Positions 3,301 through 51,300 of a stretch of DNA of 64,000 bases are shown here, in pieces. The first letter of the stretch is position 1; each line of letters begins with the position of its first letter. The DNA comes from Owenia fusiformis (taxonomy: Eukaryota): NCBI GenBank assembly GCA_903813345.2, contig CAIIXF020000001.1:21390001-21454000 (forward strand), given 5' to 3'. The position numbers and the translations under genes are program-made. The notes beneath the pieces are model-generated. The model did no database searches. It worked only from the letters and a program-made list of their open reading frames with translations, and was not told the DNA's origin.

Positions 3301-6300
3301 GATAACCTTATATGGTGTGACGAAGGGTAACTTGTAGCATAGAGTTGCTTAATAGTTCCGGAAAATAGTTCATTTTTAACAGTAATTGAGAAGAATAGCA
3401 TTTTTTCTAATTGACTATTGTTGATACATTTGTGCTGCCATGAAGAACGTTCCTATGACTGTTTTTATCTTACCCTTGCAAGTTGTGACATATTGTCATA
3501 GTCTCCAAATTTTTGATAGACAGTGTTCGGTGTCTCCAACAAATGGCAGGTGGTGATATTTTGCGTGCTAACACCTTGTATATCTGTATACGTATTACCC
3601 AATGAATTTTCTGGGATACTAGATTTACCCTGATTTGAATACTGGGAGGGTATGTCATTATCAGAAGAGATAATCAAAGGGTGTTGGTTGTAGAATGACA
3701 TTTGATTTTAATTAAGCATTGAGATAAAAAGTACATACCTTTAATAATAAAAACATGGAACTTAATACTATTATATATATTCATTGCTATATACTACTAT
3801 AGTATATATTTAGCAGTTATGTCCCTATCATTGAATATATGCCTGAGGTCTGTCACCAATATAGCCCGAGCTTGCGAGGGTTATATTACGACAGACCGAA
3901 GGCATATATTCAATGATACTAACATAACTGTATTACATACTTTTATATCATAGCTACGTTATATCAATGACGCCACGTGTCTGTGTGCGAGTGAAATTAG
4001 GAAGAAAAGAAACATGACATCCCGATGACGTCATAAGATTGTCATGGTAAAAGGTTTGGCGGCTATACAGGAATATATAGCCGACCTTCAGCTCCATTGA
4101 CTTCAATACAAATGCTTCACTGGGTATGTAATACTGAAATATAAATGACTGAATCTGCTCAGATCTTTCAGTGCTGTGATATATAAGATTGGACATAAGT
4201 AGATTATCTTGCCTAAGCCACTACCCCATACCTATTGTTAGAATGGGGGGGAATACAGGGACTTGTCACATTATGTTTGACACAAGAAAGAAATAACTAT
4301 GTTTCAGAAAACAGATATCTTTCTAATAAAAATGTCCTTATAAATAGAAATGGAAAATTGGAAGGATTCTTAGCTAATACAATGTAGTTGATTAGGTATG
4401 AGGTTGTGCCAATGAGAACACATCCGTGGGTAGGTTAGAAGCTTTTAGCTATTGATAGATGTTATTCTGTGACACACCTCTCATCTTCATTTATATGCTA
4501 TTAAAGGCCATCAATTTAATTTGCGTAACAGTAAGTAGAGCAAAATATAGTTCTTGTTTTTGATAGCTGTAGAAAGTCAATTACAATAAGATATTTGTTC
4601 TTTCATTTTAGCTCAGCCTTTTTCTTAGCTCAATCTTTTTTCTCAAATTCACCTTTTAGTTTTTTAAAGTTTATTTATATTTCAAAAGCAAAGAAACACA
4701 TGTTCTAAAGTAACTATTTGGAAAGAAGAGAGCTTCAAGAGCCTTCTTGGAGTCCCAGAGTCTTCCCTTGTGCATCATGCTGGTTCTATTTCACCTTCAT
4801 AAAGGTAGAATTTAAACCCTTGATACACACGGGGGATAAGCAAAACGAGGACGAAGCCACGGACTGCGACTCGCGTAACCTTACACCGCAGCCCAGCGCC
4901 AAAATTGAGGGACATCCGGCAGTGCCTTCTGCTTCTTCCGACAAAATAGAGAAATCCAGGTATTTTAAATGCTATCGTAGTGTCTAATCGGTGACCAAAA
5001 TATTACTCTGTATCTACTGTTGGTCTGTAGATAATAAAATAAGCAGTTGTCCAGATCAAGCTAAAACAGTAGCAAAGTTCTGATTTTACCTGTAAAATAT
5101 GTGCATATTATTTAATTTACTATACATTTGAAAGGAGTTTGAACACGTTTCTGATATCTAAAGGTTAGTTGAGGCTCCGAGTATAATTCGTGAAAATGAT
5201 TTGATAAAAGAATGTGTTCATGAGGAGAAAATTAGATTCAAACTGCGCATTCATAGTGGACGCAGTCCAGTAAACAAAGCTATTTCAACAACGCAACACA
5301 GCCTCCATTGATATTCTAAGCAACGCAGTCCAGCCGCGAACACGAAATAAATAAGATAGTGTAAACTATATTCCTACGCTATTATTGTTTCAGGAAAAGA
5401 AAGTCAGCATCCAGATTATCATTCAAAGTTACGTTGATTAACATATATCTATTACCTGAATCAATGTCCCAAATTGCTATATTGTATCGTTTAAGACCTA
5501 GAAATATGGCAATTCAATAGCGTATTTGGCAGAACAGTCGAGCGCAAGATGACAACGTAATATGTTTATTACAAACCAATTTGTGGATAGGGTTAAATAT
5601 ATAGATAATTGGATAGTGGTGAGACTTTTTATAAGAAGTAGAAATGCGAAACAATTAACTTTTTGATGATGCAATAAAAGTTTTCTGCTGGGGAAGGGTA
5701 CATTAACTAGTATTTAAGATATCAGGAAAATATCAAATAATTGGAGAGTTGGTGAGTTATTGTAATTTTGGATGATCTTTCCAACAGTCCATCAATATTG
5801 CTAGCTACCATAAATTCATGATTTCAGCTGTATTTGACAGCTTGTATATATTTGCAGAATGGATTGAGACACGATGTACGTAGGTCTATTAAAATAGCCC
5901 TTTATATTCAATTTTGTCCAAAGTTGCTCCATTTCGGCCACACCTGTACACACATGTGCTATCTACCTTTGGCTGTGATTGCGTTCAGCTCCAGATATAA
6001 AGCAACACTGAGTCGCGGACTGCGTTGGGCAGATGGATGGACTGCGACTATCATAAATTCCAATTTTCTATGTAATTGTACGTTTTCCGCTTACCAAATA
6101 TCACACGAAGATGTAATTGTAACAACAGAACATGAATAATTATATTAATTCGATGTCATTTCTGATTCCTTTGTTTAAATCGGTATATTAGGGACAAATA
6201 TTGACAAAATTACATTTTTTGTGGCAGATTTCGAATTCATTTGTGTTCATGCTAAACTATTGGACAGCCGAGCACCAAGAATGCCATTGCAGGTGGAGTA

Positions 6301-9300
6301 TGAATATGTTGATCACCGACTGGAACATACTAGCTATTCTGTAGAATATCCAAACCAATAATCTACCCCAAATCCTAACATGCCTTCCAAATTAAGTTTG
6401 GACTTACCGCCATTGTTCAGCTATAATGCGTTGTAACCTCGTTTTGAATTACGCGAGTCGCAGTCCGTGGCTTCGCCCTCGTTTTGCTTATCCCCCGTGA
6501 TACAGGACTGGTAGACTAGAGGTGTTACATCGATCCAACATAGATTCGAATCTCAGGACTGAAGGCTCGGGTTGGGTCATAAACAACTACTTACCAATTT
6601 CTGGTCGGGTCAGAACACTCTGGAATCCCCAAAATTATTGTAAAAAAATTTATATTCCCTGCAAAAATTTCAAATTTCTAGCTGGCCTAATTCTTATATA
6701 TGTATAAATGGTTTGACAATTAAGTCAAATTTATTTTTCTGTTTTTTTTCCTGACCCGACCCGAGATTAACTGACCCACATAGTTTTTTCTGGCCCCACC
6801 CAACCCAAAAAATATTTGACCTATGATGCCTCTAGTTAGTCATTCTTTACAAATATGTATGCTCCAAGAATTCTGTATATATTGACCCAAAAAACTCTTT
6901 GTAGGAGGATTTGTTCCTCAAAATGCAGAGGTACACAGACTTGCAAGCATACACCCATCTTTTATCACATAGTGCTCTGTCGTCAATGTCTTATGCTAAT
7001 AGCCATGCATGTGCTTTCTGTCTATTTGGGTAGGTGGGTACCACATAAATCTTGTTATTGCTGATATGTTCAATTAAATTTTTTTTTGTGGTTAAAACAT
7101 GTGATATCTATATCGCTGTGTGTTTTGTGTTAAATGTATGAGTTGTAGACCATATTTTATATTATGTCATAAATGCGGTGTAGACTTTTATATGAACTTG
7201 GAGTTGATCCCGGGAATTTTGTACTCAAAGCAAGATCAGATGAATTTTTATATATTGCTATGTGGGCATTTTAGTTAAGTGCAGCCAACAACAATAGAAA
7301 CATTTTTGAAGTGCATATTAATTCATGTTGTTTGTTTAAAGTTCAATATGTCACTATAAGAAAAATTTCTATATGTAGTCACCCCCGTCCTTCTCTGCAG
7401 GAAGTATTTCAATTATAAGGTAGCCATCATTATGTTAAAACATCTTCATGATTCATACATATGTTTTTAACATGGGCCCTGGAGCAATCTAAGTTGTAGC
7501 CGGAGAATCTACAACATATACATTAATATAGGATGATTGAAACAAGGCTTTGCACCAAGTATTGATTAGCGACCACAGCTACATAGCAGATAACTACTGG
7601 CTAGCTTATATACTTATATGGCAATCGGTGAAATATTGCGCTTTATATTGGATTTTATATGCAGAGGAATGTCGCCAATGTAATAATACATTGATTATAT
7701 ACATTGTGTTTAGTGGAAACATATGTCTGAATTACACACTAAATGAGGTCAAAAAATTAAATTTCTCTTGTAATGTGGTTAGATAAGGAATGGATTCTTT
7801 GAATGTAAAGGGTGTAATGCAAGCTTATTTCTGTTAGTAGGCACAATCTAGGGCCACCAAGTTTTCTGCATTTGGAGATATACGAAGTAAAGCATGTCTA
7901 TATTATTATCTACTCACCAACTGTCAAACAACAGTTCATATATATATATTAGGTAAATGGATTATTATAAACTATAGAGATTTTGGTAAACTATAAAACC
8001 AATTATTGTACCTATTATAGTCATTGTAAAATAATAGTACAGTGAAACTTGTAAAGTGGAACCCCTCTATTATGCCTCAGTCACATTTGCTCCAATTCAT
8101 CAGCTGGCGTCCGGCCGAGTTTGTTCAAAATTGTAGGTCAGATCTCAAATTTAAGGTCAGATGTGAACTCCTGAGAACTTGTACATGATTTGAAAACAAT
8201 TTGAAGCAAGTTGAAATCAGTTTTGAACAAAATACTGCAATTGACCAGGCACCGGCTGATGAATCAGAGCAAATGTGACCTGGGGATTAGTGGAACGCTT
8301 TTCAGAGTCTCAAGACCGATAACTGATTTACTGTTAAAAGAACCTCTCTAAGTGGAACACCCCCCAAGTAGAACTGTCCCACTTAGACAAGTATTACTGT
8401 GTTTGTAACCAAACAAAGGACTCAATCAATAGATATTTCCTAGGATGCCAATGATTGAGCCATTATGCCATGGCAACTTCCCTTCATTATTTCTGTACTT
8501 TCTTGGCCATGAAAACCCAAGGAGGAAACAATATGCTATGATCCTTCATCATAAACTCTGCCATAATCATAATCACCAACATGTCAGAGCATCAATCATT
8601 TGAGAAATGAGAAGAAAAAGTTGTGAAGATTGTCAAATATGAGGTGTAATTTTAGGTTTAACACCAGGTAAGGGTGTTTTCATGCTTGAGAGGGATGCAA
8701 GGCTTGCACACGTTCTTTACTATCAAAGCTCAATTCCTAATTTTCAGTTAAATAGAATAACTTAGTAAATGCATAAATTGTATTCATTCATTTTTTATCT
8801 TTTTGATGCAGATAGTAAAAATTATATAATCTGAATGTCACTGGGACCAGGCAAGTGTTCATATTGGCAGGTATTCATGCTTAGAGGTGTGTTTAGATGT
8901 ACAGGTTAAACTGTATACTGGTTTTTTATGAGTATTTATTTATTTGAACTTGGAAATAAGACTTTAAAGATGATCTTATTGAATATATTCTTATTGAATA
9001 GTGAATACCTGTCTCAAATAGACACTCTTCCTTACCACATACTCAGCTGATTTCTGTATAAATAACCCTCTCTGTACTGAACACCTCGCTCCAGTGCACA
9101 TGTTTGTGGCTCTATAGATGTTCAATATACACAAGTTTCACTGCTTGCTCCATTAAAGATATCAACTCTTGTTTGAAACAAAAGCCTTGAAATGCTGACA
9201 ATTTGTGTCTAGAATCATCAGTCTGCTTCAATTTTATACTACACTTCTATTCAATACATCTGAACCCCTCTGAGAGTTACCACAATCAATGTCTCTTTAT

Positions 9301-12300: not shown

Positions 12301-15300
12301 GAATGACCTTACAATGAAAAACAAGTTATTTGGAACTTGAGGCATTGACTAGCGCCACTTCCCGGCACAGACAATACACATGGCAGTGAAACCAAGAAAA
12401 TAAACTCATGTCATAGCCATGTTGATTTTATTTTGGGAAACAATAGAAACTTGCATGTAAAAAAGCTGCAAAATGAAACTGCCTGGATATAGTTAGCACC
12501 ATGGGTTGAAAATAGTAAAAACATCAGCAATGAATCGGTAAGATTTTATACTTGTCTTTTTATTGGTCCCTGCATGCCAAATTCAGCCCACTTTTGCTGG
12601 TAGGTAGGTACCATGTTCTTGTTTCCAGGCATACCGTTTGACCACAGACTTATGAAGTGAGCATACTATCATTATGGAATTACTTTTTTTATACTCCAGG
12701 AAATGAACGTCAAAATTTTCCTTTTGACCATGCATGAGGAGTGAGTCACCCTTCTATCTTATCTTATATTCAGTAGCCAGTATTAGATATAGAGTATATT
12801 ATAGAGGGAGGGGGATGACTTACTCCTGTGGGAGCATGCCCGGGCCCCAGGGGTGGATCTGGGAACCAACAAGGGGGGGGGCAAATCTCATGTCAGAGAA
12901 AAAAACTTCTTCCTAAAACCCAAAAGTGAGCCCAACTTTTGAAATTTTGAGGCCTATTTTCTTCAAAATGTGGCCTGAAATTTTAAAATAAGGCCTTAGA
13001 GGGCCCAGTTATGACTTAAAAGGCCCACTTTTTGGGGCTTTAAGGCCTTTTTTGCTCTAAATTTTTTTGGGCCCTATTTTTTTCTGGGGGATATATCCAT
13101 TGAAAGTTTCATGAAAACTGCTGCCTATATTGTTAGTATGTATCTAATGTTTGAATTGAATTGTTTTCATTGATGGATGAATCAAAACGAAATTGTTGGA
13201 CCCCTTATATACATATAGCATGTAGCACGTATGCCTTCACTTTTCTTGAGTATAATATGTATTATATAATTATTTAACAGAGGTCAGTATCATTTATCTC
13301 TCAAGGCAAGATTTTTCTCAGTTTAACAGATGTTTTAGTTTTATCTGCTTTACTCTCTGGCAGATTTATTTGTACTAAGTTATACTTGATAGGGTTTTGA
13401 ATGAATAACATGACATAAGTGGCTTGGACAGTCCAGCTGGTTCCTAAGAAAGGTTATTCAGTGGTCAATGCCACTACTTTGATAAAAACTAAAGTGGTAA
13501 TGCAATCATGTAATCATGTGATGCATTGTTTATGAGATATGTATGGAATGATTGCTTAGAGATGTCCTGTCCATTTTGGAATGTCCCTTCTCTGCACAAT
13601 TGTTCTTTTAGTTTTGTTATTTTCTAAAATCAGATTACCAAATCAACTCTAAATGGAGTTTTACAATCAAGTTAAGTATTAATTTTCAGTAAGTTCAGTT
13701 TTTAGATAATAGTATTTTGCATGTTTAATAAACATGAAATATGGCTCTTGTTATATAAAGATTATCCTATATGAGGTTCAGGATATTGGGATTATCCCGA
13801 GGCAAATATAATATATTTGCCCGAGGGCCGCAGGTCCCGAGGGAAATATATTATATTGGCCAAGGGATAATCCCAATATCCTGAACCGACTATAGGATAA
13901 TATGTTTATCCCATACCAATCTTGGTCATCTGGTCCACATTGTTCAATCGTGGAAATATTTTAGAATATTTATGTCCAGTTTTGTTTTCTTGGCCGTGGG
14001 CGGATTTTCCTGTTCTCTCAAATATTCCCACATTTATTTTCTCGAATTTTTGATTGATTAAGTGGATGCTCTTTCCCTTTTTTAAACCATCACACAGAAT
14101 CCGATTGTCTGTGTTTTCTCCATTGTAGTTTACAGTCATTACGCGAACGTTACAAATTATGAACAAATATGCGAGCGGCGATTATGACGTAGCGGGCAGA
14201 TATACTATATCTGCCCGCGCGGAGCGGGACGTAAAGCTATATCTGCCCGCTGATGAAAATATAAGTTTTTACAAACCGGCTTTATGTACCCGTAACACGT
14301 CCAAGTATGGGATAAAGATATTTATCCTATGCCAAGTAGAGTTTAAGGGAGATAAGTTGGTAAGATATATCCCGTATCCTGATGTTGAGGTTTCCATATC
14401 CTGAACCTCCATATCTCCCGCCATATCTCCCGCTCCAGGGCATATCTTCCCGCTTCAAAAAAAAAAATTGAAAAAATTAAAAAAAAATTTGAATAAAAAT
14501 TGAAAAAAAGAAAAAATAGAAAAAAATTGAGGTCCCTACAGTCCCTCAGGTAGATATGCATATCTCCCTCTGGATAAACCTCATATCCAAAACTTCCCAG
14601 GATATAACCCTTATATATATATAACAAATGGCACTGGAAATATCCCTTCTAACTGGAAAAGCTTCTAGATTTACACGAAAAGTGTCTAACTGAAAAAGCC
14701 TTTATGTTTACACCAAAAGTGTCCCCTCTAACTGAAAAAGGAAAATCATGGTGAACTTGTTTTCTTATATCATATATCTTACCCTCCAGGTTATTTCCTC
14801 AAATATAAACAGAAGATGGTAAAATAAATAGGAGGTGGGGGTAGGGTAGGTAGTGAGTTTGCAACAAGCTCCTATTTCCTAAAAAAATAAATGAGAGTTT
14901 GGGAAACTTCAAGACAAATTGTATAGACTAGTGAGCATAGAAACTATTTCTTATTTGAAGATTGTGTTATCACAGAATAGTAGACAATTTTAAGATATAA
15001 GTGGTAATTTTATATGTTGTTATACATAATAAAACATCATTGGGACAGGCATAGAAGATAAATCTATTTGATTAGATTACTATTGCAACCTACTTTGGCC
15101 TGTTATAGTGTTATATTTGTGTCAGTGTTATATTTGTGTCACAGTTATATTTATATCATTGCAGTATCAAGGTGGGTAGGCATCAATCTATTTGATTAAA
15201 TGATTATTATCGCAGCCTCCTTACTCTGCCTGTTATTGTGTTATATTTGTGTCACCATTATACTGCCACTGCTGTATCGAAGTGGGTAGTGATGTGTGCT

Positions 15301-18300
15301 CGTAGAATTCAGCCCCGGAGAAAGAATGGCCAATATGGGATGATTAGTATTGTTACAGCTAAAATCACTTTCTTTCCCAAAATCATACACACATGCACAA
15401 GTTACAGTATTAGTCAATAAAATATCTAGTATGTATGGTATGGTATGGTATGGTATGGTATGGTATGGTATGGTATGGTATGGTATGGTATGGTATGGTA
15501 TGGTATGGTATGATGTTATATGGTTTCTGGTTAGGTATGGTATGATATGGTTTGGTGTGGTATATTTGGTATGTATTTCCAGGCTTGGTCATTCCACTAT
15601 TTTGGATGTTGACCTTTTTTAAGCAAATGTTTCATGAAAGCGTTATCTCCCTAAGTAGTGCCTGGATGAAAGATTTGCTGTGAACAATAAGATGATATAT
15701 TAATAATTATGAAATAAAAATAGAAGTGGTTGGCACACAAAACAAACAAACACAAAACAAACACACAAAATTAGACAGTGTAGAAGCCATATTGCTCAAT
15801 GCTCATACTATAGATACATTCTGATTTTAAATTATCAGAATCTTTCTTTATCTTAAACTGTGGATCTCACAATGACTTTAAGCTCCTGAGAGAGAACTTG
15901 AGATTAAGGAACAATTTCCATCTTGGCAGGTAGCTGGGTTCTCTGAATTTTAATCCCCTCATGTCTTGTCTAGGTATATTCTAGGCACTAGAGATTTGAA
16001 AAGAAGTTGAGCATTTCTGTTATCACTAAGAATTATAGTCCATTACTGTATTCATCTGACATGTGATCAGCTTATATTAATCGGGTCATAGATATTCATT
16101 TCCCTCAATTCGAATCCCATCTGATTAAATCTAATAGAAATGTAATAGGGCTGAAATTGTAGATACATCTGTTGCATTTATATTGAGTAAATAGGCGTCT
16201 GCTATTGTAAAACATTCACTAGATGGCAGCACCAGTAGTGTTTATCAGAAAGAACTGGACTTACACCCGAGATAACATACACATCAGAATATTACCTTAG
16301 TATCTCTTTGGATATGATTTAAAGATAGCATTTCATGTTTAAATGATTCACACATATGGATAAAATGGCTGTAAAAGATTGGAAAGGAAATATGCTTTTT
16401 AAAGGTAAGATTATGTATTTCAAGAAAATTATCCAACATATACATTCAGCCTGTGCTATAGGCCACAGATTGAGCTAGGCACGTATTGATTTGCCAGGCG
16501 GCTAAAGCTACATAACTGTTTGCTGTTCTAAGTTCACTGGCTATTACTATGTAAAACATCAACTGTGTGCACATACACTTTACAGCCAGGGATAAAAATT
16601 CAGTTTAAGTCTGGTATTGGTTTACCTGGCCAAGTTGTTGAATTCACCATGTAAATGTACTTGGTATTTTATCTGAATGTTTAAATAATATTAATGCTTT
16701 TGTGGTTTCTTAAGGGCACATGCTGTTATGCAGAACATTATTCTCACAGCGCTTTAATAATCAGTGTATGGAAATTATAGCATATATATATACAAATGTA
16801 TTATACTGTATTTGTTAATGGTCCCTAGATTTTTTTGCTATTTATATACCAGTATAGCACTGTAGTATTCAAATGCGCACCACATGTAAATCTCTTATAA
16901 ATTAATGATCATGATGACGACTTGTATGTTACAAAACAAGTGCCAATATATGCTAGATACATATGGCTGTAGATCCAGCATGTGAAATACTGGTATTCAT
17001 ATGTCTATTGATCGTGTAGCTAGGCACAACAAGTAGAATGATTCATGTGAATGTATTTAATCATGCCATTATAGAGAAAATCATTATAGAGTATATAGTA
17101 AAACTGTCGAGTAGAAAACTTCAAGAGAAAACTTAAGTTGAACACTTTTTATAGTTAACAAACTCAGTGACATGCTTTTTATGTGGTCAAGCAGAGCATT
17201 CGATAGCATGGCCCTTATATTTTAAAAGCACATTAATTTTGGGCATTAGCTATATACCTGTTTCTTCAATCGATTTGAACATTCATTTTCTCCTTGTCAA
17301 TCTCAAATCATGGACATAACGCTATATTTCTGAGTAGTACGCCACCACGGGAACAAGAGTTGAGCGAAGCAAAAAAGAGTGTTTAGGGGGGTCTGGGGGT
17401 TCTCCCCACGAATATTTTGAAATTTGGTTGTATTTGGAGCGAATTTGCAACCATCTGATAAGCCTGTGCATACCAGGCGCTACACCTGTCCAAATTGCAG
17501 AGGTGTTCACTTTACTTTTTGAGATTCACGCAGTAAATTCAGACAGTGTTTCAAAATGTTAACATAGCCTTCTATTCTAGTTTGATAATTCATGCATGCA
17601 TAAGAACAAATGAACTTAATTTTGGTAATTCCTGTCACTTGGAGAAAATATGCTTTTTGTGCTAAGTTAAAGATGTAAACCATATATGGAATGAGTTATA
17701 CAAGTATAAAGACCTGAAAATAATGTACTTCAATTAGGAAGCCATTAAAATTTCTGAACATGCGGATATCTCTCACAATTTATCGATTAGTTCTGTAAAA
17801 AGGTTCCTGTGACAACTATTGAATTGCATGGCATTAGATTGATCTATGTTAACAGTTAGGTATCTAAACCACACTCGCATTTGGCACATAAGGTGGTCAC
17901 CAAAATATTTGTTTTATTATATTATACACCAAAATCATAAATATATCCCAGGAGTAGTGACTATATATATATATACAGTGTATAGAGGTATCCACTGCTC
18001 TTAAGAATTTCTCATATTTGACTTACATGATTGGTAAATATCACCTCGTGAATATACTTCATTTTACATGACCTGGATTTAACCAATGATAAAGTAAGAA
18101 GCTTGATCATGATATGATAATTAAAAATGTTATTCACTTTTTCTGACCAGAAATCATTGATTGTAAAATGCACTGTGATATTATTATTATTGATATTATA
18201 CTGGTTTACAGTAATTTTTCATTTTATTTTGAAATTGATGAAACATTGCATTTCGGTAACCCGGTAATTGATTTCCAGTAACGGTAAATCTCAATTACCT

Positions 18301-24300: not shown

Positions 24301-27300
24301 TTCATCTTTAATACCATTTTTAATGTCAAAGATGATATCTTCAACTTTTTTCTAAAATTTTGATTGTGTCCTCATATTTATAAAGTAAGTCCTGACTGGG
24401 ATCAGTTGATTATCTACTAGTTCGTGTATAAATGACATGATCTTCAATATCAAAATGGTCAAAATGATTACATTGAAGTTAAACAGTACATAAAATCATG
24501 ATTGACTTATCTCTAATCATGTTTAGTCATTTAAAGCTGATTCTCTTTCATTTCATTAACATAGTGGAAGATTTTGTGATTTTTATTTGTGCAACATTTT
24601 AGAATTTTCTCATTTTTTATTGTAGCATTTTAGAGGACACATCTAATTGCATTGAGGAGCGTTTGGTTTTGTAAAATACATGGCGGTGGTGCGCCTCAGA
24701 GATTACACTTCAGACATAGAGTCGCAGGTTCATACTTTGCACCATACACTTTATGCATTTGTATTTTGTTTATGAAATTGAGAGTTGGCCAAAGGTTGTG
24801 TTAGCTATCAGATAAGTGTAGAATGTTTTGCACTAGAGAACCTAGAACAGCTGTTTTGTTGATAGTTATTCCAACTGAATGTGTGTGTTAGGTTCTGTGT
24901 TGAGACAGGTATGTACAAGAAAAAAAATGAGTGCATGTATACTATATACTTATTATTACACTCGTTCTGTCCTGGTATATACTCATTTTGTTTTTGAGTA
25001 TACTCATTCTTTCACTCGATTTGTCCTGGTATGTGCAAAGTTTGTTTTAGTTGCATATACTTATTCTCACACACATTCTGTCCTGGTATTCATCCTTATA
25101 TTCATTCTGTTCTGGTATGCACTCATTTTGTTTTTGAGTACACTCAGTCTTTCACTCGATTTGTCCTGGTATGTGCAAAGTTTGTTTTAGTTGGATATAC
25201 TTATTTTTACACACATTCTGTCCTGGTATTCATCCTTATATTAATTCTGTCCTGGTATACACTCATTTTTTTGAGTACACCCAGTCTTTCATTCGATTTG
25301 TCCTGGTATGTGCAAAGTTTGTTTTAGTTTGATATACTTATTCTCACATACATGCTGTCCTGGTATTCATCCTTATATTCATGCTGCCCTGGTATTCATC
25401 CTTATATTCATGCTGCCCTGGTATTCATCCTTATATTCATTCTGTCCTGGTATGCACTCATTTTGTTTTTGAGTATACTTATTCTCACACTCAATCTGTC
25501 CTGGTATTTTCTCATTTTTGAGTATACTCATTCTTACACTCATTCCATTCTGGTGTGTACTTATTTTGTTTTGAGTACACTCATTCTGGATTAAAGAAAA
25601 GGTTGGAAAAAAGGTTGAAGCAAGACTACAATTTCATGAGTTCATTATTAACAACGGTCACACATTATGATTTGAAAGTGATAACATACATAGAAATCTT
25701 TGTCTTTGAAAATATAATGTCAATAGTACTATGAAATGCCAGATATTGCATGAGAGTCTTCATAACACAAGCTATAATCTAGTAATTATTGAGGATTATT
25801 TCATCACTTGTAAATGGATTAAAATCTTCCATAACTGCAGTTAGGCCTGTGCTAGTCATGTACTTCTCGTACATGCTAACCTCATACTTAAGACAATCTT
25901 GATAACATATTATCTGTGGGTGTCTAAGTCATGTATTGTATTGTGTTAAATATTATGTGGTGCAGTGCCAGTACTGAGTACCATTCAGACTTGTTATATA
26001 TGGTGATAATAGTGTTTTGCTGACCGACTTTGTCTCAGACTCCATCTCACTGATAGATCTCCACTGAAAATGAATTTTAGCTTTCCTGAAATTTATCACT
26101 CGTTGTCAGAGGGATGAACTAGTTAAGACAGCAATATGACTTTTTCTGTTTTTCATCTTTGAAGCAAACTTGGCCTTGTATTTTCACAATTATGTACATA
26201 TCTTAGCTTATGTTTTGGGTTATTTGCCAATCTATGCTTGTTGGTATATAAGCATAAATATATAATATTATGCATGAAACGCTGTGACCTTAAATGTAAT
26301 CTGTAAATTCATTTTGACATTGTAATATGTCGTAAATATGAAACTTAATATGCTTTTAAAGCCAAAACGTTCATCATATTACTAAACAGTGTTTAAGCTA
26401 TATACTCGACCAATGAATAAGAGTAGTGTTGTTTTAAGATAGAACTACACAATTTTTTTCTATTTAAGGCTTATTTTCTTGATAATTTGGGCCTACCTAA
26501 TCTGGGCCAACCCAAGGGGGCCCCTGCCCCCCCCCCCCCTCCAAGTTTTCTAGCCCTCTAATAGAAATCCGCCTTTCTACTATAGAATTTAAATAAAACC
26601 TCCACCATTGAACAACATTCGCAAATATTTTTAACCAATGTATACCATGAAAAATGTTGATGGAATAACATGTTACTCACAGACCTATGAGATATGTACA
26701 GGCAGAGTCCACAAATTTACCTTGTGTTAAATCTGTTTTTATTCTTTTAACTTTTAATATTTTCAAGATTATGTTTTGTATTAACAGCATAATAGAGATT
26801 TTTACCGAGGCCCTTCACAAGCACATTATTGTATGTTTTAAATGTGGAATAAATGTTTAAACTGTACAATACAGTATATAACAGATCAGCAATGTAGACC
26901 TCCCTAGATGGAGTTTTCATGTTAGATCTACGATTTGTATTTCTTACCAAATATACCAATTCACCTGTCTATTGTTACCATAAGCAAGCAATGTTTAGAC
27001 TGGATTGCTTATATATACATACTGACATTGGAGAAACACTTTGCAAATCTCAAATTGAAAAGCACCAGTCTACATCACACAAACCCAGGAAATGAGATAT
27101 TCACTATTTATTCACTTCATTGGTCCTTGTATATATTGGAAATATGCTGAAGACTGTGGCAAGGTTGTATATAGAAGTTCAGTTTATACCTTATAGCACT
27201 ATTCTTATAAACAATGCTTACTGGCACTAAACATCGTGATAAACTATGTCATCTCATTTCTTCTCAGTTGTGACACTTTATGACACAGTGAAACATTTCT

Positions 27301-33300: not shown

Positions 33301-36300
33301 AGACATAAGTTCCTAGTAAAGCTATTCATGGGTAAGATTATTAAAATTGTAAAAATGACAAATTAATTCATTGACTTTATTAAGTAATAACCTTGAAATT
33401 TGTTTTGTACGGTAGGTAGAATTCAAAATATAATGTAAACAAAGCTATAGTAGTTGTGATAAAAAATCAATATAAGTAGGAAATGTTTAGTTCATGCTAA
33501 AAGGAAATAATACTTACATATTTTGACATATTCTGTATGAAGCATAAACACTTTGAATTCTTGTTATTAAATGTAAGTACCTTTGCAATGAGTAGGAATG
33601 AACTTACCAATTTACCATACTTTCATGTTTCAACAATTTAATTGATTTTCAGAGATATGTCTAATAGACTGTATAAATATATTTGTGTTATACACTGTTT
33701 ATCAAAGGTACTGAGAGTGACTTTTGCAGTCAAATAAAAGAAATACATGTACATGTATACTTACTCCAGGGCTCTAGGTATATAGAGTGAGGGGATGGAT
33801 ATATATGTTTATCCCATACTTGGACGTGTTACAGGTACATAAAGCCGGTTTGTAAAAACTTATATTTTCATCAGCGGGCAGATATAGCTTTACGTCCCGC
33901 TCCGAGCGGGCAGATATAGTATATCTGCCCGCTACGTCATAATCTACGCTCGCATATTTGTTCATAATTTGTAACGTTCGCGTAATGACTGTAAACGACA
34001 ATGGGGAAAACACAGACAATCGGGATCTGTTTGATGGTTTAAAAAAGGGAAGGAACATCCACTTAATCAATCAAAAAATTCCAGAAAATAAATGTCGGAA
34101 TATTTGAGAGAACAGGAAAATCCGACCACAGCCAAGAAACGAAACTGGACATGAATATTCTAAAATATTTCCACGATTGAACAATGTGAACCAGATGACC
34201 AAGATTGGTATAGGATAAACATATTATCCTATAGTCGGTTCAGGATATTGGGATTATCCCTTGGCCAATATGATATATTTTCCCTCGGGACCTGCGGCCC
34301 TCGGGCAAATATATTATATTTGCCTCGGGATAATCCCAGTATCCTGAACCTCATATAGGATAATCTCTATATCTATCTAATTATCGTCACAAAGTCTGGG
34401 ACATAAAGCTATATCCATCCAGGACCATCCTCTTAAGCAGGTATTCTGAATCCATACCTCCTTCTTCCCCCTGCCATAACCAATTTGGAAGCGCCCGATT
34501 AAACTGAATCACGTGATCTAATTATGCGCAATGACTTATACATGATTTCTGTCGCAGCCAATCAGATTGCGAGTTCTTAATCGAGGAAATACTGACTGCT
34601 TATCGCAGGGGGTAAAAAGAAAGAATATATTCTGGATTTTGAAGCCCTGTGATCAGAGGATATTAAAAAATAGATTAGCGTTAATTCTTGTCATTCTTGT
34701 GTTTTCAGAAACAAATGCCTCAATGAGAAGCGGAGGAGAGAACAGGAGAACATCTATATAGAGGAGCTAGCAGAATTGATCTCGGCTAGCATCACTGAGA
34801 TGAACACATTCTCTGTTAAACCAGACAAGTGTGCCATCTTACAGGAAACTGTCAGTCAAATTCGTAGAATCAAAAATGAAGGTAAGAGAGAGGACTTTGT
34901 TATGTTGTATCAATTGTGTGATCTTTAATCTCACTGTTTACTAATTACGTTCAAGATGTAAATACTATTAAAGAGTGCCGATATTAGGATACAAAATAAT
35001 CAATTTATATGAACCATATCAAATGATTTTTCAATAATAACAGGTGATGTGTTTCACTGAAAAAATGCACGTCAAGATGTGATAGTTGCACATTTTTAGA
35101 GCTAATATGCGACTTATTTTTATATAGCTTAAACGCATGCGTGATTGAAAAGTAATTGAAATTGTTAAGTACATACCTGGTCAATATACTCTGTTCTATG
35201 ACTACATTGTAATTGTATACTTAGTAGCTCTCCTGAGTGTAAAAGCCTAGTATGTTATAGCATTGAATCATAAAGTGCTCTTTAAAAATCTTAAAGAACT
35301 ATTAGTCTATATTGGCAATGGTAATACCAGCTGTAAGTGGATTGTATTCAATGTCTACTGCATATGATAATAATATAGAATAAACATCTCAACAATTTAG
35401 GATTCTATAGTGTTATTGTCCCCTATATTCCATAAACTAACTCAGCTTGATTGTGTTGGCATTGCCAGATAATACAGGGAGACACAAAAAATGACAGCCA
35501 CCTTACGTTGCATAACTTATTTGTCTATTGACATATAGACTTGTTCCAAAAATTTCAGATGTGTAGCTCAAGTTGTTCAAATTTTATGAGTAGTCTATTT
35601 TATTGTAGACACACATGGATTTTACATGAGAAATGTCACTTGGCTTGTACTTTCAGGGAAATGATGTCCATTCAATTAAACACAAAATAATGTAGTTGTC
35701 ATTGATAGAATCATTATAACTTATTTCCAAAATCATGATATAAAAGCTGGGTGTCATTTTTTGTGTAAGATCCAGTTGTGCCAGCAAAGGAATAGATGAC
35801 ACATTTTGTAATGGTCATTTAATGTGCATCTAGATGAGCTAGTCATTTGAAACTTCTTGTTGAATTGCAAAATGGAGTGTAGTTTTAATTTGCCCAAAAA
35901 TTTGTCAGAATTTCTTCAGACAAAAAAGTTATGAAACATAATGTGGGTGGATGTCATTTTTTGTGCCAAGCGGTATACTGAGAAATATTTTAATATGGAA
36001 TAGATGGAAGATTGATAATTTTGCAGAGTGATGAATTTTTGTTGATTGTTGACTAATTATTATTTAGACATTAATATAAAAAACAGAATTGCATCCCCAA
36101 GATTATTTTTGGTAATTATGAAGTTCTTAAAGATTTAACTTTTAAACATCTTTTACTGTAATGCCTTGAATCAATAAACCATTACTATGCAACATTTTGT
36201 CTTACTTAGCTACATACAATTGGTAGCTATTTGAAACTTAAACAATGATAATAACACATTATTAACAGATCCAGGGTGATACATATATAATTCTTCATAA

Positions 36301-39300: not shown

Positions 39301-42300
39301 TGAATTTTAAATAACAATTATAACGACACTTAAATATATTATACCATCTACGTCATGCAATGTAAATCTATTATGCTTGGGTGGTGAAGATACAGAATTA
39401 AGATATATTGTAACGGGGTACATGTATTGTTATATCACTATTGTATCTTCATGTTTGCATACTACAAATAGATGAAATGTAGTTGTAACCACAGTTGTAA
39501 ACCTAGCACATGATTCATAACTGCCTGTAATAATCACAAAATTAAACCTCACTAAAAAGTTATTTTTGAATAATTTACAGATTTGTCTTTGAAACATGTA
39601 TGATGCTGTTATTTTACATGTATCAAATACTTGTAAATATCCGAATATTAAACAGAATAAGATAGAATTGAATGGAATGGAAAAGAAACTTATCTAATGT
39701 CTATCAAAGAAGTGTTCTCTAACATTAGGTGCTGTAAGGGGTGTATATCTATATGTTTGATAATACTGCATTTACACGTGTCCTCAGGAAACCCTCTAAA
39801 CCTTGAATGACCTTGCCTGGTGGTAAATAATCGGAGGAATAGCAGTTCATAGTTTAGCACCTTCCTAAAATTACTTATACATTGAAATATGAGAATCAAT
39901 CTAATTTGTTCTATTTTATCAGTTGTTCCATGAATATTGATCTGGTTGCGACTGTTTATATATATTTCAAATAATATCGGAGATATACTTGTAAGGATGT
40001 AATATCTCCTTCCAATTTGTATTCAGGAGGTTGTGGCACATGTTTTCTTGATTATGTGGTCAAAATATATATTTGGTATTTGCATGTAACGTGGTCATAC
40101 TATTATAGAATAATTACATTAATTAATGCTGACCTGAGCCATATGAATATTGAACCCTCAATTTATCCACGGTTCCATCATCCCTCAGGAGTCAATTTAC
40201 ATGGAGATATTGCATTACTTACTTGTCTGTTCATCTGTCTGTCTATTGTCTGTCCATTTGTCTGGCTGTCCATCTTTCAACAATTATGGTATGTTTTGAG
40301 ACCTCTGTTTATATGATTCCAGTCTTAAGTTATTTTTGGTGTTCATTTATATAAAAAAAGGGTCTTTTCAACTTTTTCATGTTAAATTTATTATTTCCAT
40401 TAATTTTGCCAGTTGTTTTCATTCATTGAGCCTGTTGTGAGAAATCCTAGTGAAACCCCTGTTCATAGTATCTATGTGATCATGACTCAAAAAGTATTCC
40501 CACAACAAAGTTTTTGGAAATCGTATAATTTCGACATGGAAAAGAAGCAGGTTAAGCAGTAAAAATGAATTGAGAACTTTGTTCATGAACATGAAGCCCC
40601 CTATGAAGCTTTCACACAAGACCATGTTGGCTCACCACTTGGCACCTTGCGAATGTGAATACTTTTGGGTAGACAGTGGTAGACGGGACTGGGATAGACA
40701 CACAATTTCAAAACAAATAGTTTTATAGCAAGATACCCCTCACACTTGTTGATAAAAAATGAATGCCCAAACGTATTCACATGGTGGCCAATGACTAGCC
40801 AAAACAGCCTAATGTAACAGCCACTTTACAAGGTAAATATGCATTGCTCAAAAGGATATTGAAAAACATGTATTATAGGAGTCCTAATAAACATGCAGCA
40901 CATATTGAAAAATAACTATTAATTTGATTATTGATATGTATGTGCAATATATATATGTATACATAACTATATTTAATATATCTGTTTCCACAATTATTGC
41001 CTTAGTGTCTCGTGTAGTTCAGGTCACTATTATTTACCATCATGTACTGTTATGCCAAGGCCTCACATACAAACAGAGGATAGAGTGAAATTGACCGCAA
41101 CACACCAGTTGGGTTATACATTATGTAACCTCGGTTCAAACACGGGCTACTAGGGTGAACCATTTGGAAATACCAAACAAATATTAAACATCACAAATAT
41201 CTATTGTTAAATTATTAATCATTCTGGGATGACTGCAGTTTTGATTTTTTATTGACTTGACTAGCACCAAATGTAACATCCCTTGTTGTATTTATCTGTA
41301 GAGAGTACTACCAAGTGTACAGCGAGCTAAATTATGTAAAATTATTTTTTAAAAATTGGGTATTGACATCTTGAGCAACAGTTATAATCAATGTGCAAAG
41401 TGGTACATTGAATGAAAATGGTAGATTGAATGAAAGTGGTAGAATTGAAGCAATACTGACAATTTTGGAAACCCTTTTACTGAAAATACTGAAACTGAAA
41501 ATTCAGGTAAAAGTATTATAAATAGATGTGCAATCCTGTATTGTTTCTGACCTGAAGAGCTATTCAAGTGATAGATAAGTCAAAGGATATTAAATCATTT
41601 TCATTATAAAGATACAAAACTTATATATCATTTAAAAGGTCTGGTGTAAGAATATTGAGAATATAAGGAAATAGTACAGATATATTATATCAGTTCATAT
41701 TGTGATGTCCTGTAAGAGCAGATGTATCACTACGGACATACTTGCAATTGTACTAATAAAATTTATGAGCAAACAATGCTTTTGTACAAGGGTTGAACAC
41801 CAACTCAAATATACAACTTTTTTTTATTTTGTTTTAAGAGCAATTATTTATTGAATAATGGCAAACTGGTTCAGATAAAATTTAGAAATGTTTAAATGGT
41901 GGTTAACCATGCCTCTAAATATATGCAGGTTGAAGACTAGTTACATACAGTGCAGATGTATCAGAAGGATATATAGGGGTTATGCACTGGGAGGTTTTGG
42001 ATACAGGGAATATCCCGAGGGATATACAATATATCTTCCCGAGGGACTGAAGGGACCGAGGGAAGATGTATTGTATATCCCAAGGGATATTCCATGTATA
42101 CAAACCGACCGTGCATAACTGGTGTATCTCATACGTGAGTGGGTTTAGGGTAGATATAACCTTTTCCAACTTTTTCAAATGACAAGATATTTATATTTAA
42201 CATTTTCGTAATATTCTTTTTGTTCAATACAATGAAATTGTAACATTTAAACTTAAAAAAATTAAATTTTAAAATTAAAAAATTAAAACTTTTGATATTT

Positions 42301-45300
42301 AAACTTTTTTAAACTTTTGAAAAATTCCCGGCAGCGGGATGGATATATTATATCTGCCCGCATTTGGCCTGGAGCGGGACATATACAATATCTTTGCCCG
42401 CTCCTCAGATACGATATATATTCCCGGGTGATATCTACCCCAAACCCACTCAAGTATGAGATACATATGCAGATGTAATACTAAGGATATATAATGCAGC
42501 GGTATCACTAGGGATATACATGCAGATGTAATACTAAGGATATATAATGCAGCTGTATCACTAGGGATATATATTCAGATGTTATACTAGGATACAAAAT
42601 GCAAACATAATTCTGTGGACATAAAATGCAGCTGTATCACTAGGGATATGCAGATATAATACTTGGAATACACAGTGCTGATATAATACTGTGGACAAAA
42701 AAAAGCAGCTGTACCATTGGGATATATACAGATATTATACTAGGAACTCATGATGAGGATGTAATGCTGTGGACATAAAATGCAGCTGTATCACTGGGAA
42801 TATATATGCAGATATAATACTAGGAACACACAATGAGGATGGAATACTGGGGACATAAAATACAGCTGTATCACTAGGAATATGCAGATGAAATGTTAGG
42901 AACTCACGATGAGGATGGAATACCGTGGACATAGACTGCAGCTGTATCACTAAGAATATATATGCAGATTTTTTTACTAGGAACATAATGCAGATGTAAT
43001 ACTGTGGACATAAAATGCAGCTGTACCATTGGGATATATGCAGATGTTATACTAGGAACACACAATGGGGATGGAATACTAGGGACATAAAATGCAGCTG
43101 TATCACTAGGGATTTACATGCAGCTGTATTACAGGGGATATACATGCAGATATATTAGGGTCATACATGCAGCTGTATCACAAGGACAACATGTAGATGT
43201 ATTAGGGATATACACATTTTAATTTATAATTTGAGTTATACATATATATGAAAATGTAATAAATATGCAATGGTGTATATGCAGTTGCATTATTGTAAAG
43301 AGACTATACATGCAGGGCACCATTCAAAGTACCTGCATATTATCAGGATCTATTATATGTGAGACCCGAGCAGTGTGATAAAAGACAAGAGTTCAAAGAG
43401 CCTGGCTAAGAGGCCTCTTCTTCCAGAGACAATGTAGTATAGATGAATGGGCTACTTTATTATGGTATCTTATTGCTTCATCTCCAGGAACAACAGCTGC
43501 TATAACTGCAACAACTGCAGTAATGATAAGAGCTGCAGCTGCTGTATAACTAGAAATATCCACAAAGTTTTATATGGACAAACATGTTGATACAATATAC
43601 GTAGAAATGTGGAGATTTTTTCAACTCAAGATTTTGTTCATAAATACAGCTGTTCATCAATGTATAGTCCTAAGTATATACCCACAGTCATTGGAGTTGT
43701 CCCAATAGGATACACAATATCTGAGGCTCTAGGCCTGTCATAGGATATGGTTCATAGTTGCTTTGTGAATAACTGTTCTTTTTTACTGAAACCATATGTG
43801 GTACTATATATTTTATTTATATATCACATGTAAATTGGCATAGATACAAAGTACAAAATTATGGAAGTTATGTTACACTTCGTATATTCAATTTATATGA
43901 TATTAATTTATAAGAGGGTTCTGCCAATACAAGGTGCATAAGGGATGGTGTCCAATTGTAAACAGTCATGGAAAAATGAAGTTGATTTTGCTATTGTTTG
44001 ACCCCCCTCATCTAATAGAATTTTAGAATGCTGATTTGTCTTTCACTTGAATTTTAAAAAATCAACGCTATTTGCTAAATAAAGCATCATTTACCTCCTT
44101 TCCCTAAATGAAACTTATTTCACAAGTGTTGATAATTGGAGACTTTCCCTCAAGTGAATTGAATTGGACTTTTACTCTGACATTGATTATTTTTAATGTT
44201 AAGTCTAGCATTTTCTCAAACAAAGGTTAAATAAGGCTTCTATAGTAGGCAATGCAGAACATGTTCCAAATTGAAAGATAAACTAAACGTCTAGCTGGAC
44301 TATTGTAAAGTCTTATTGTATCTATGCTTTCTTGTTAATATAATAGGCAGTCATTTTTTGTAGGAATTTATTTATTCAACATAATTACATACGGTAATAT
44401 GAGAAAATACAATTGCAGGCAGTCCCTCTTACCTTATGACATACTCTGAATATGAAAATATACTTGAATGATATATAGTTAAAGCTGCCTTAATGAACAC
44501 CTCTCTCTTGTGAACACATGTCTCTAATGAACACCCTTCCAACACACCTACTTTACTGACTTTTGTATAGATTGCCCTCTCTGTAGTGAATACCTACTTA
44601 CATTGAATACATTCTTGTGGCTCCATAGGTGTTCACTGCACATAGTACTGTATATCCGAATGTTTTAAATTGCAGTAAGTTTAAATGCTCATCACAATTA
44701 ACAAGTTAATAAAAATCATACAATTGTTGCATTTTCACAAAGTCAAAAAATATATCAAGAATACAACTACAATACAGAGTTAAATCAAAATTCATGTTTT
44801 TCATTCGATTAGACATAACAATATTGTGTATGACTAAATAGACCAGTTACTTTTTGAGAAGTGCTGTTGACCAGCAAGTTTTTATACTGACCACCTGATG
44901 AATTCAAACTGCCAGTCTGTATGACAAGCAGTAAAAAGAAGCTCAGCTCAAGCCCTGGACAGAATATCAACATGACAATTTACTGAACAACGGTCTAGAT
45001 TAATGCCTCATACGTCTTTCCTGAGTATTCTCAGTTTTCAGGAAATTGGCGATATCAATTTAAAAAGTCATATTTTGTTTAAGTACTAACACTGCTAGAA
45101 CTGTCAATGAAATTAGTGAATAACCTCTGAAGATTTTATAGCTATACATACCTATACTTTTTATTATTATTATAATAAAAACTGATGTTAAAAACTTGAT
45201 ACATTGTCATAGAGTAAAAAATGGGACTTCCTTTATTCTAGTATAATTGTTATTGTTATTTGTCAGGCAGAGAATCCATCCCATGAATTTAGCGTGTTTG

Positions 45301-48300: not shown

Positions 48301-51300
48301 CTTGTTGGTCCTCTGAACAAATAATCACAATTTATTCAAATTAATCCGACAAATTTTGTGATTATGATGTGACAGTCATGCAAGGACACTGTCATCTTGA
48401 ATTTTGTCATTGTTTTGGTTCAAAGAATTTTTGAAAACCTTGCTTACTATTGACTTGTTTAAAGTATACATAAATGGGTTATGGTCATGGAACAAGGATG
48501 AATTTAGAAATAACCTTGGGAGTGTGTTAATAAATTACATCCTACAGACACATGTCAGGGTTGGCCGTCTCAATATCACAATCTACATGTCAATGTCACA
48601 TTCTCCCATTGATGTTGAAAAATGTATTTTTTACAAATTGTTTCAGTGGAATAAAACCTTCGAAGTACAGATACCCGGACTTTGATGGCCATAATATTAT
48701 TGACTTTGCACACGCAAATGATGTCCAGCTATTAAATAAACATTTACAAGAAGGTAATTTAGAGTCATTTATATTATCTCTCTCTGTATTTTGATTCATA
48801 AGGCATCTAGTTTTTAATTTCTGTAGAGCTATCTGATAAACACATCACTAATTTCTGTCTTGCATCACCATGGATTCCCCTATAAATGTGGATTGAATGA
48901 AATGATAATCATAAAAAAGTGATAATTTCAATATGTAGGTACAACGTATCATATAGATATTATCCCATTGTTCTTAGAACAGACATATGTGTTAATTTTT
49001 TTAATATGATCGTTGTCATTTACCTATTCTAGTGACTAAGAGCGGCAAGAATCCTACAAATCACACGAGCAGTGTTTATAGATTCAAACTCCGAGATAAC
49101 AAATATGTCTTTGTTCAAACTAAGAGTCGTTTATTCAGTAAGCCTGTCACATCAGAGCCTGAGTTTGTCATGTCTACACATTCAATTATTAGGTAAGTAC
49201 ATACAGTATGAGCTTTGTCAATAGATTCAATTTAATAAGTTGGTCAACATTTTCAATCATTAGGGAGTAAAATAAGTTTTTTGCTAGTTTATTCATTCTT
49301 TCCATCTAATCTTAATAAAGAATAACATATACAAGGGGCGAAACATATATTCTGATAAAAATGCTCTCATTTTGCTATTTTTTCACATATCCATCTCATA
49401 TTTTCAGAAAATGTAGATTATGTAATTACACATACAATGCTGAAATATTATAGCTACATCTTAAATTAATTAAGAGATAGGGTACCATGGTAACCTGTAT
49501 TAAGGGTAGGCAGGTCAATTAAATTATAACGTATAAAATATCATAATAACTTGTTATTTTGATTATATTAAAGCATGCGGAAATCATACATTTTTTCTAA
49601 AAAAAGTTTGGTATTGTTTCTCGTTGTTTGTTGCTAAACAAATGTTTATTTGTGATCACTATAACATCACAACAACTCACAATAGCAATGTATGACAGGA
49701 TGGGCAAATTGGAATTACATGTCATGAGACCGCCAAATATCAAAATGACAGATCAGATGAGGTTAGTGCGGCTGTTGCAGAGTGTGACATTAACAGATAC
49801 ATTAGGAGTACCATTAGATTTTATGTACTACCAAGAATAAGTTAGAGGACACTGCCAGAGACATACATGGACTCTTATAGTGTATGGACAAGGTGTTATA
49901 TCTGCTCTAAGGATCTCTAGGTAGTATTGTAAATTTGAGGGAGGTTAGTCACTGTTGAATATCATTCCCAATTTGGTTGCAAGAATAGCTTGCGGACAGA
50001 GAATAACACTACGATAATTTGAGATGCAATTTATGAAAAAAGAACTATTCCACTGTGGAAATAGCAAACAAGGGCAACAGGGGTATGGAGCAGTTCAACG
50101 AATAGTTGGCAATGACCTGGATATGCGTTTGATCTGATTGAAATAGGTACCGAGGAATGATTAAATTAACAAATTTATCTATTGTATACGTTATAATTTA
50201 ACTGACCTGCCTACCCTAAATACAGGTTACCATGGCAACCTTATCTCAAAAATAATTTAAGATATAGCTTTAATAATTTAGCGTTGTATGTATAATTACA
50301 TAATCTTCAACTTCTGAAAACATGAGAGGGATATGTGAAAAAATCACAAAATGAGAGCATTTTTATCAGAATATATGGATCGCCCCTTGTATAGTGGTCA
50401 GTCAATCAATGTCACGACTATTGTAGATTTAAATGTATTCCATATCTACTGAGGTTCTAGGTACTTAACATTTGGGAATGTATAGTGTATTTAGGGATTG
50501 GGTGGATATTTCTGTATCTATCCCTCTTTTGTTAATTATAATTTATCTGTTCTTATTCAATGAAAATGAATTTTTAAATTTCAAAATATTCATATTTAAA
50601 GTTTTAGAATTAAAATTTAAAAAATCATTTTTTTAAATTTCTGAACCTTTGAAGGTAAGATGTATGTAAAACCATAGTTGGACTGGTATGGAATATATCT
50701 GCTATGTATCGTCAGTTTCGGATACAGGGTTTATCCCTTGTGAAATATATGTATCTTCCTCTGTCCCTGCAATACAAATATGTACACATATTTCCCTTGA
50801 GATAAACCCTGTACCCCAAACCTCCCAGTACATCACCCTTATGTATACTTGACATATCATATAATATCTTATATACTTGTTTATTTGCAGAGAATGTGAC
50901 TCAGACATTGAGTTGAAAGGTTCTGCGTCTACTAGTTTAATGAAGTCTATCATTGGTCAAGGTCTCGTCAAAGGGGGGTATGTTTGATTTTCTGGATTTT
51001 CTGTTTCTCCTTAAGGAGATTAAGGTGGTTGTTCACGTTGAGGGCTAAAAATAAATTTACGATGAAGTGAATATATTATTATATCAAAATGACCATGACA
51101 TAATTTTGCTGCATTAAATCAAAAAAGGTTGGTGCCACCAAGTTTTTTCCTTAAAGTTAGAAAACATCTTGATCCTCCATAAGAGAGAAGTTGATGCTGA
51201 ATGACAGGAGTTTTGAATGTTTGAATACAAGAAAATTATAGTTAGTTTAAGAAAATAGTGTAACAGAGAAACATTAAAAATGCTAATACTGGGTATAATT

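Follow-up and report, generated by a model that had tools for sequence, protein, structure and literature searches.

Short non-coding mobile elements of the annelid Owenia fusiformis are probably Helitron2/Helentron-type transposons first read on the complementary strand

A stretch of 64 kb from the annelid Owenia fusiformis (contig CAIIXF020000001.1, positions 21,390,001 to 21,454,000; hereafter the window, AT-rich with 34% G+C) holds six copies of short mobile elements, designated A, B1, B2, C, D, and E. These elements are probably non-autonomous, HINE-like rolling-circle transposons of the Helitron2/Helentron type (HLE2), which had first been read on the complementary strand. What is notable about these presumed HLE2 families is an oversized palindrome at the 3' end and a target flanked by TATATA. 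The initial annotation had interpreted the elements as carrying an internal inverted copy of their own circle junction, and had related them to the tyrosine-recombinase elements Crypton and DIRS.

The relation between the internal site and the element ends is real and far beyond chance. In B1, the 26-nt site at 13891–13916 is the reverse complement of the last 15 nt of the element (to 14319) joined to its first 11 nt (from 13761), with agreement at 25 of 26 positions. B2, which lies on the opposite strand and is 95.3% identical to B1 over 577 nt (B2 alignment approximately 33797–34372), shows the same relation with one mismatch at a different position; thus, the original observation stands for family B. 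A search of the window for the family B 26-mer, allowing up to three mismatches, returned only the B1 and B2 sites, where none is expected (100 shuffles). With family A placed at 3814–4134 and its site at 3922–3940, as first annotated, the ungapped match is 12/19; moving the left end from 3814 to 3815 raises it to 19/19, as judged by eye. For family C (site 42111–42134 in 41979–42465) the ungapped match is as low as 13/24 because a 3-nt spacer splits the two halves of the internal site, which taken separately match at 12/12 and 9/9. End alignment and the empty site of C place the element boundaries within 3 nt of the first coordinates on the palindrome side, and within 0–1 nt on the other.

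What structure underlies this relation? As first read, each element has the form L-X-L'-R'-Y-R, where the prime denotes the reverse complement and L'R' is the internal site. Algebraically, this is a palindrome (L-X-L') abutting a body (R'-Y-R) that has short inverted repeats at its bounds. On the opposite strand the order becomes R'-Y'-R-(L-X'-L'), which is to say a 5' terminal repeat, a non-coding body, a matching repeat, a palindrome, and a tail. Because the outer arm of the palindrome is complementary to the inner one, which adjoins the second repeat, the joined 3' and 5' ends are necessarily the reverse complement of the internal site; in B1, the inner arm is the source of the half of that site which the repeat does not supply. 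The junction relation follows from the palindrome and the repeats, and therefore no separate junction copy needs to be encoded. Indeed, any terminal repeat with a subterminal partner and a terminal hairpin mimics an inverted copy of a circle junction, and therefore the pattern alone is no evidence of a new mechanism.

The terminal inverted repeats are 11–39 nt long and the palindromes approximately 105–141 nt; the agreement of the paired parts in each copy is given in Table 1. The 5' repeat has its internal partner in five of the six copies, and the partner is gone from E through an internal deletion, where A-rich low-complexity filler (14457–14530) occupies the place in which the internal repeat and the inner arm of the palindrome would lie. 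The internal repeat runs directly into the palindrome in B1, B2, and A, and is separated from it by 3 nt in C and by 16 nt in D. The palindrome stops 3 nt short of the element end in B1, B2, and C. When the window was scanned for palindromes at a strict setting, long ones were found only at the A, B1, B2, and C loci. Chance abutting of two independent insertions was ruled out as the origin of the arrangement, since the two-part layout occurs in five of the six copies, in four families, and at unrelated loci.

The initial annotation had suggested that a single strand could fold with both ends pairing on the internal site, and the predicted structure agrees. As single-stranded DNA, B1 is predicted to fold at -109 kcal/mol, compared with -57.6 +/- 5.3 kcal/mol for 100 shuffles (z = -9.7); in this fold the two repeats are paired and the long hairpin forms beside them. 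Within the palindromes of B and C (13786–13874 and 41996–42104), a CCCGAGG-like motif also recurs three or four times, in both orientations, and the bodies of both families hold GCGGGCAGATAT-type hairpins. To judge from their sequence, these motifs and hairpins could be candidate protein-binding iterons.

The layout has a published counterpart. For Helitron2, Bao and Jurka (2013) described a 5'-ATIR 0–2 bp from the 5' end and a 3'-ATIR just upstream of the 3' hairpin, reported compensatory repeat changes between related families, and proposed that pairing of the ATIRs sets the end point of replication (PMC3627910). Contrary to what had been supposed, the design is thus not new: it follows from the Helitron2/Helentron terminal layout, and the pairing of the repeats is already proposed in that source. 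HINE/DINE-1 elements are described as having subterminal inverted repeats (subTIRs), a 3' palindrome, frequent central tandem repeats, and a TT target without a target site duplication (TSD) (Thomas and colleagues, PMC4067079; for oyster, PMC7492417), and Helentron proteins have been reported from Annelida (PMC4067079). The joined ends of a fungal Helitron2-like element have been amplified, consistent with a circular intermediate (PMC5148889). Three features of this group were found in the present elements, namely a terminal repeat with a 3' partner (in the group, approximately 8–16 nt long and at or within 2–4 nt of the 5' end), a 3' stem-loop downstream of that partner, and insertion between two Ts without duplication, the last at one empty site.

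Where do the elements begin and end? The ends of B1 were set by its homology to B2 and by analogy with the reconstructed empty site of C. Beyond the outer palindrome arm lies a 3-nt tail, which is CTC in B2, CCC in C, and CCT in D, and conforms to C-Y-Y in all five copies of B to E (for B1 and E, see Table 1); because of this tail, the truly joined ends hold three bases that are absent from the internal site. The element start always reads A-T-(G/C/T)-T and the other end always C-Y-Y, and such asymmetry is more in keeping with an enzyme that nicks one particular strand than with a DDE transposase. The 3' flank that follows is TAT(A/G)TA in all five copies of B to E; since this motif starts at a fraction of only 0.0028 of window positions, its presence at a fixed offset in five of five copies is not chance. 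In A, a 6-nt stretch precedes a motif of the TAT(A/G)TA type, and the outer ends of this element are uncertain by a few bases because it is a single copy. The last base of the 5' flank is T in B1, B2, C, and E and A in D, while the first base of the 3' flank is T in all five. The 8 bp common to B1 and B2 beyond each of the first annotated ends were considered as part of the element and rejected: on the palindrome side they correspond to the 3-nt tail and the TATATA flank, and on the other side of B1 they belong to the neighbouring E.

A stand-in for an empty site is provided by the 27-bp satellite array that element C interrupts. The left flank of C aligns to the array on its right with a score of 40, which none of 1000 shuffles reached. 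The alignment stops exactly at 41975, and the array bases after that point are the bases that follow C from 42467. Excising 41976–42466 restores a satellite unit with no duplicated bases, and places the insertion between T and T on the element strand. The satellite itself (41919–41975 and 42467–43214) has higher-order periods of 53, 76, and 156 bp.

A mechanism can be proposed from this layout and from the published HLE2 group. A Rep/helicase transposase supplied in trans would nick the 5' end and displace a single strand. Together with the 3' palindrome, pairing between the repeats would mark the end point and bring both ends side by side, whereupon the ends would be joined into a circle, and the circle would insert between two Ts, duplicating no target bases. 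According to the predicted fold, the C-Y-Y tail would form an unpaired bulge exactly at the joint, which would make it a plausible single-stranded nicking site.

Could the same layout be produced by cut-and-paste transposition? Miniature elements mobilized by a DDE transposase, of the Tc1/mariner-like kind with a TA target, might consist of a fold-back unit and a longer unit bounded by terminal inverted repeats (TIRs), the two abutting and moving together. Algebraically, the element is indeed two adjacent units, each bounded by inverted repeats, and by eye both ends of A start with CAGT when read inward. A TA can be placed beside both ends in five of the six copies by a shift of 1–2 nt, again by eye, but such flanks carry little weight because the target DNA is TA-rich. 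Similarity between the first 60 nt of the element and its inverted 3' end is significant in C (score reached by 1 of 500 shuffles) and D (6 of 500); it is not significant in B1, B2, E, and A, where 227, 89, 70, and 128 of 500 shuffles, respectively, reached the score. The claim that the elements have no ordinary TIRs is accordingly correct for the outer ends of B, E, and A and fails for C and D; short inverted repeats are present, one at the 5' end and one internal. Cut-and-paste movement is also at odds with the outermost nucleotides, which differ systematically (A-T-S-T against the C-Y-Y tail), and with the exact restoration of the satellite at C without duplication. No solo unit was found in the window. 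This explanation is considered unlikely.

In a second alternative, the elements would be non-autonomous relatives of tyrosine-recombinase transposons, following a Crypton-like or DIRS-like logic in which the joined ends are the recombination site and the internal copy is either a second site or a splint for forming the circle. The absence of target duplication at C agrees with this, and the 5' flank in B1, B2, and C resembles by eye the terminal motif of the element itself, much as attB relates to attP. By eye, the joined ends of family B also form a dyad of approximately 11-nt inverted arms round a short spacer, which resembles the 11–13-bp arms and 6–8-bp spacer given for tyrosine recombinases in one account of Cryptons (PMC3212892). 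However, the dyad is clear only in B, and the arms are dissimilar in C and A. Moreover, the HLE2 layout already accounts for every feature, and a Pfam scan of 14 of the 49 window frames of at least 90 aa gave neither a recombinase nor a reverse-transcriptase domain. DIRS1-type retroelements have an internal segment complementary to both outer ends, by which a single strand can bring the ends together, and the present elements are alike in having such a segment. DIRS elements are multi-kb in size and have long inverted terminal repeats as well as reverse transcriptase and tyrosine recombinase genes. Their long terminal repeats flank coding regions, and nothing of the kind is seen in these elements, where the long arms are adjacent, forming one palindrome, and not at opposite ends, and where no remnant of a reverse transcriptase, RNase H, or recombinase was found. 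Cryptons are similar in lacking target duplication and in their presumed circular intermediate; as far as the account in PMC3212892 extends, their terminal repeats are short and direct or are missing altogether, and they lack both inverted repeats and a terminal hairpin, animal Cryptons being reported without terminal repeats of either orientation. By contrast, the present elements show strong inverted repeats as well as a hairpin at one end. No feature specific to either group was found, so that the proposed link to Cryptons or DIRS is not upheld, and a tyrosine-recombinase origin is regarded as quite improbable.

How independent are the families from one another? The nhmmer alignment of B and C extends over their whole length (E = 5.7e-19), and two more relatives were found in the window by the same means, the degraded D (50433–50839) and the internally deleted E (14320–14611); A has no nhmmer similarity to B, C, D, or E. 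Because B, C, D, and E are homologous, the notion of one design in different families rests on two independent lineages, A and B to E. The initial annotation was right to see the design in both A and C, and C proved to be homologous to B, which leaves A alone as independent. The repeats have diverged within the B to E lineage and between A, B, C, and D, and each partner has altered along with its repeat. Covariation of the internal site with the ends across families, which had been put forward as a check, thus holds in A, B, C, and D.

The description of the elements as short, non-coding, and mobile-looking is likewise sustained, as two B copies that are 95% identical lie at unrelated loci and C breaks a satellite. 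B1 and E meet head to head at their 5' ends (14319/14320), creating a 28-nt imperfect palindrome (14305–14332), and the 5' flank of B2 (33789–33804) opens with an 8-nt stretch that matches the start of E at 7 of 8 positions. Family members may tend to insert beside the 5' ends of relatives or beside look-alike sequences.

Several points weigh against the assignment to HLE2. The sample comprises the six copies of a single 64-kb window. A 5' hairpin, which Bao and Jurka list for Helitron2 (PMC3627910), is predicted for none of the six copies over their first 60 nt (z from -0.76 to +0.57), nor was a DINE-1-type 5' inverted repeat found in them. Weak complementary stretches are visible by eye 20–35 nt downstream of the 5' repeat; the DINE-1-type repeat lies 3–22 bp downstream and is described as missing in some HINE families (PMC4067079). 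The palindrome of approximately 105–141 nt compares with 5–10-bp palindromes or 20–40-bp terminal regions in the literature, as far as the sources at hand describe them, and the TAT(A/G)TA 3' flank points to a stricter choice of target than the plain TT of HLE2. The one reconstructed empty site, that of C, is a stand-in, and because satellite units vary, there may be a TA duplication at C, with ends shifted by 1–2 nt; as noted by eye, a shift of this size brings TA beside either end in most copies. No Rep/helicase partner was seen among the scanned frames, 13 of the 14 being without a Pfam match and one giving a weak Connexin match below the cut-off.

Some of these same departures might instead suggest an undescribed HUH-type or other single-strand transposon that merely resembles HLE2, either a deep offshoot of that group or an unrelated lineage. 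The palindrome of around 140 nt and the adjoining repeat would then act as a built-in splint for self-templated end joining: the ends of the displaced strand would lie paired, side by side, on the internal site, the C-Y-Y bulge would be the point of nicking and joining, and the same pairing would select TATATA-flanked targets that are like the element's own 5' end. A palindrome several-fold longer than described HLE2 termini, the lack of a predicted 5' hairpin, the strict TAT(A/G)TA 3' flank in five of five B to E copies, and the 3-nt bulge that the modelled fold would place exactly at the joint are all in keeping with such a lineage. Nevertheless, every one of these differences falls within the variation between families of a known group, and a separate lineage is considered unlikely.

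Do the elements encode anything? The body of B1 contains a frame of 91 aa, which has no relative among 1.84 billion representatives and no Pfam match, and which is broken in B2; a coding remnant was ruled out on these three grounds. A CTGATGA motif in B1 raised the option of a ribozyme or retrozyme, which was rejected, as Rfam gave only sub-threshold matches to generic long-hairpin microRNA families around B1 and nothing at gathering scores across the window. A metagenome scan with the family B internal site yielded 0 matches. The pattern common to the B and C body hairpins gave one metagenome match (L001), which is high in GC, looks coding by eye, is unlike the elements, and was taken as chance. 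The literature search found no description of these families for this annelid. At least one of six short element motifs turned up in 44 papers; among the 10 of these that were listed, the subjects were unrelated and the strings look like primers or chance occurrences, and the supplement on oyster HINE elements holds satellite sequences only, with no element-specific motifs.

Table 1. Positions of the elements and their parts in the window. Fractions give matching positions between the 5' repeat and its internal partner, or complementary positions between palindrome arms.
Feature	Position	Strand	Details
Element B1	13758–14319	-	Order: terminal repeat, body, internal repeat, palindrome, 3-nt tail
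B1 5' terminal inverted repeat	14305–14319	-	14/15 against internal repeat; 'right end' of initial annotation
B1 3' subterminal inverted repeat	13902–13916	-	No gap to palindrome; half of first annotated internal site
B1 terminal palindrome	13761–13901		Arms 13761–13821 and 13841–13901, 54/61; hairpin in predicted fold
B1 tail	13758–13760	-	CTT after palindrome, then flank TATATA
G+C-rich small hairpins in B1 body	14191–14252		Related motif common to C
Element B2	33805–34367	+	5' repeat 33805–33819, internal repeat 34208–34222 (14/15)
B2 palindrome and tail	34223–34364; 34365–34367	+	Arms 53/62
Element C	41976–42466	-	5' repeat 42427–42465, internal repeat 42123–42161 (36/39); boundaries from reconstructed satellite unit
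C spacer, palindrome, and tail	42120–42122; 41979–42119; 41976–41978	-	Spacer 3 nt; arms 53/60
Element D, degraded relative of C	50433–50839	+	5' repeat 50433–50444, internal repeat 50687–50698 (11/12)
D palindrome arms	50715–50753; 50783–50821	+	32/39
Element E, internally deleted relative	14320–14611	+	Retains 5' end, outer palindrome arm, and CCT tail
Element A, independent family	3809–4136	-	5' repeat 4124–4134, internal repeat 3930–3940 (11/11)
A palindrome	3815–3929	-	44/52
27-bp satellite array broken by C	41919–43214		Stand-in empty site

The window has further repeats and frames. Two other inverted repeats, at 8080–8279 (35-nt arms, 130 nt apart) and 53142–53244 (37-nt arms, 29 nt apart), have no sequence relationship to A to E and may be other miniature transposons. 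Tandem repeats occupy 24944–25587 (140/277-bp units), 55265–55756 (145-bp units), and 15429–15563, a (GTATG)n microsatellite of approximately 27 copies. Long low-complexity open frames lie at 51545–52516 and 56377–58140; the latter, of 587 residues, matches a section of an Owenia fusiformis protein at 100% identity. That protein has 2080 residues and PAS-type Pfam domains, and the gene is presumably of the nuclear-receptor-coactivator kind.

In genome annotation, these repeats are best entered on the opposite strand as probable non-autonomous HLE2 elements, and not as Crypton-like ones. Two points are of modest interest, the unusually long 3' palindrome and the strictly TATATA-like 3' flank. 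If both hold genome-wide, these families would lend themselves, as a natural system, to tests of how the HLE2 transposase recognizes the 3' end and the target.

How do the elements compare with the known members of the group? Compared with Helitron2/HLE2, they differ in the size of the 3' hairpin, given as approximately 20–30 nt in the published descriptions, in having no predicted 5' hairpin, in a TATATA-like 3' flank instead of a mere T, and in that no Rep/helicase partner was seen in the window frames scanned. The likenesses to Helitron2/HLE2, as set out in PMC3627910 and PMC11417382 (HELIANO), are a 5'-terminal inverted repeat with a subterminal partner that immediately precedes the 3' hairpin, a few nucleotides after that hairpin, insertion between T and T without duplication, and repeats that co-vary between families. 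In HINE elements, so far as the sources describe them, the 3' palindrome is 5–10 bp, the 3' repeat lies 38–60 bp from the end, and the 5' repeat lies 2–4 nt inside; here the 5' repeat is terminal and no 5' internal inverted repeat was detected. An association with satellites is common to both, with the difference that the satellite lies outside element C, within whose array C sits, and not inside the element. In other respects the present elements agree with HINE/DINE-1 (PMC4067079, PMC7492417): they are short and non-coding, with subterminal inverted repeats of 11–15 bp, a palindrome that follows the 3' repeat, a middle of low complexity or of tandem repeats (here in C, D, and E), and a TT target without TSD.

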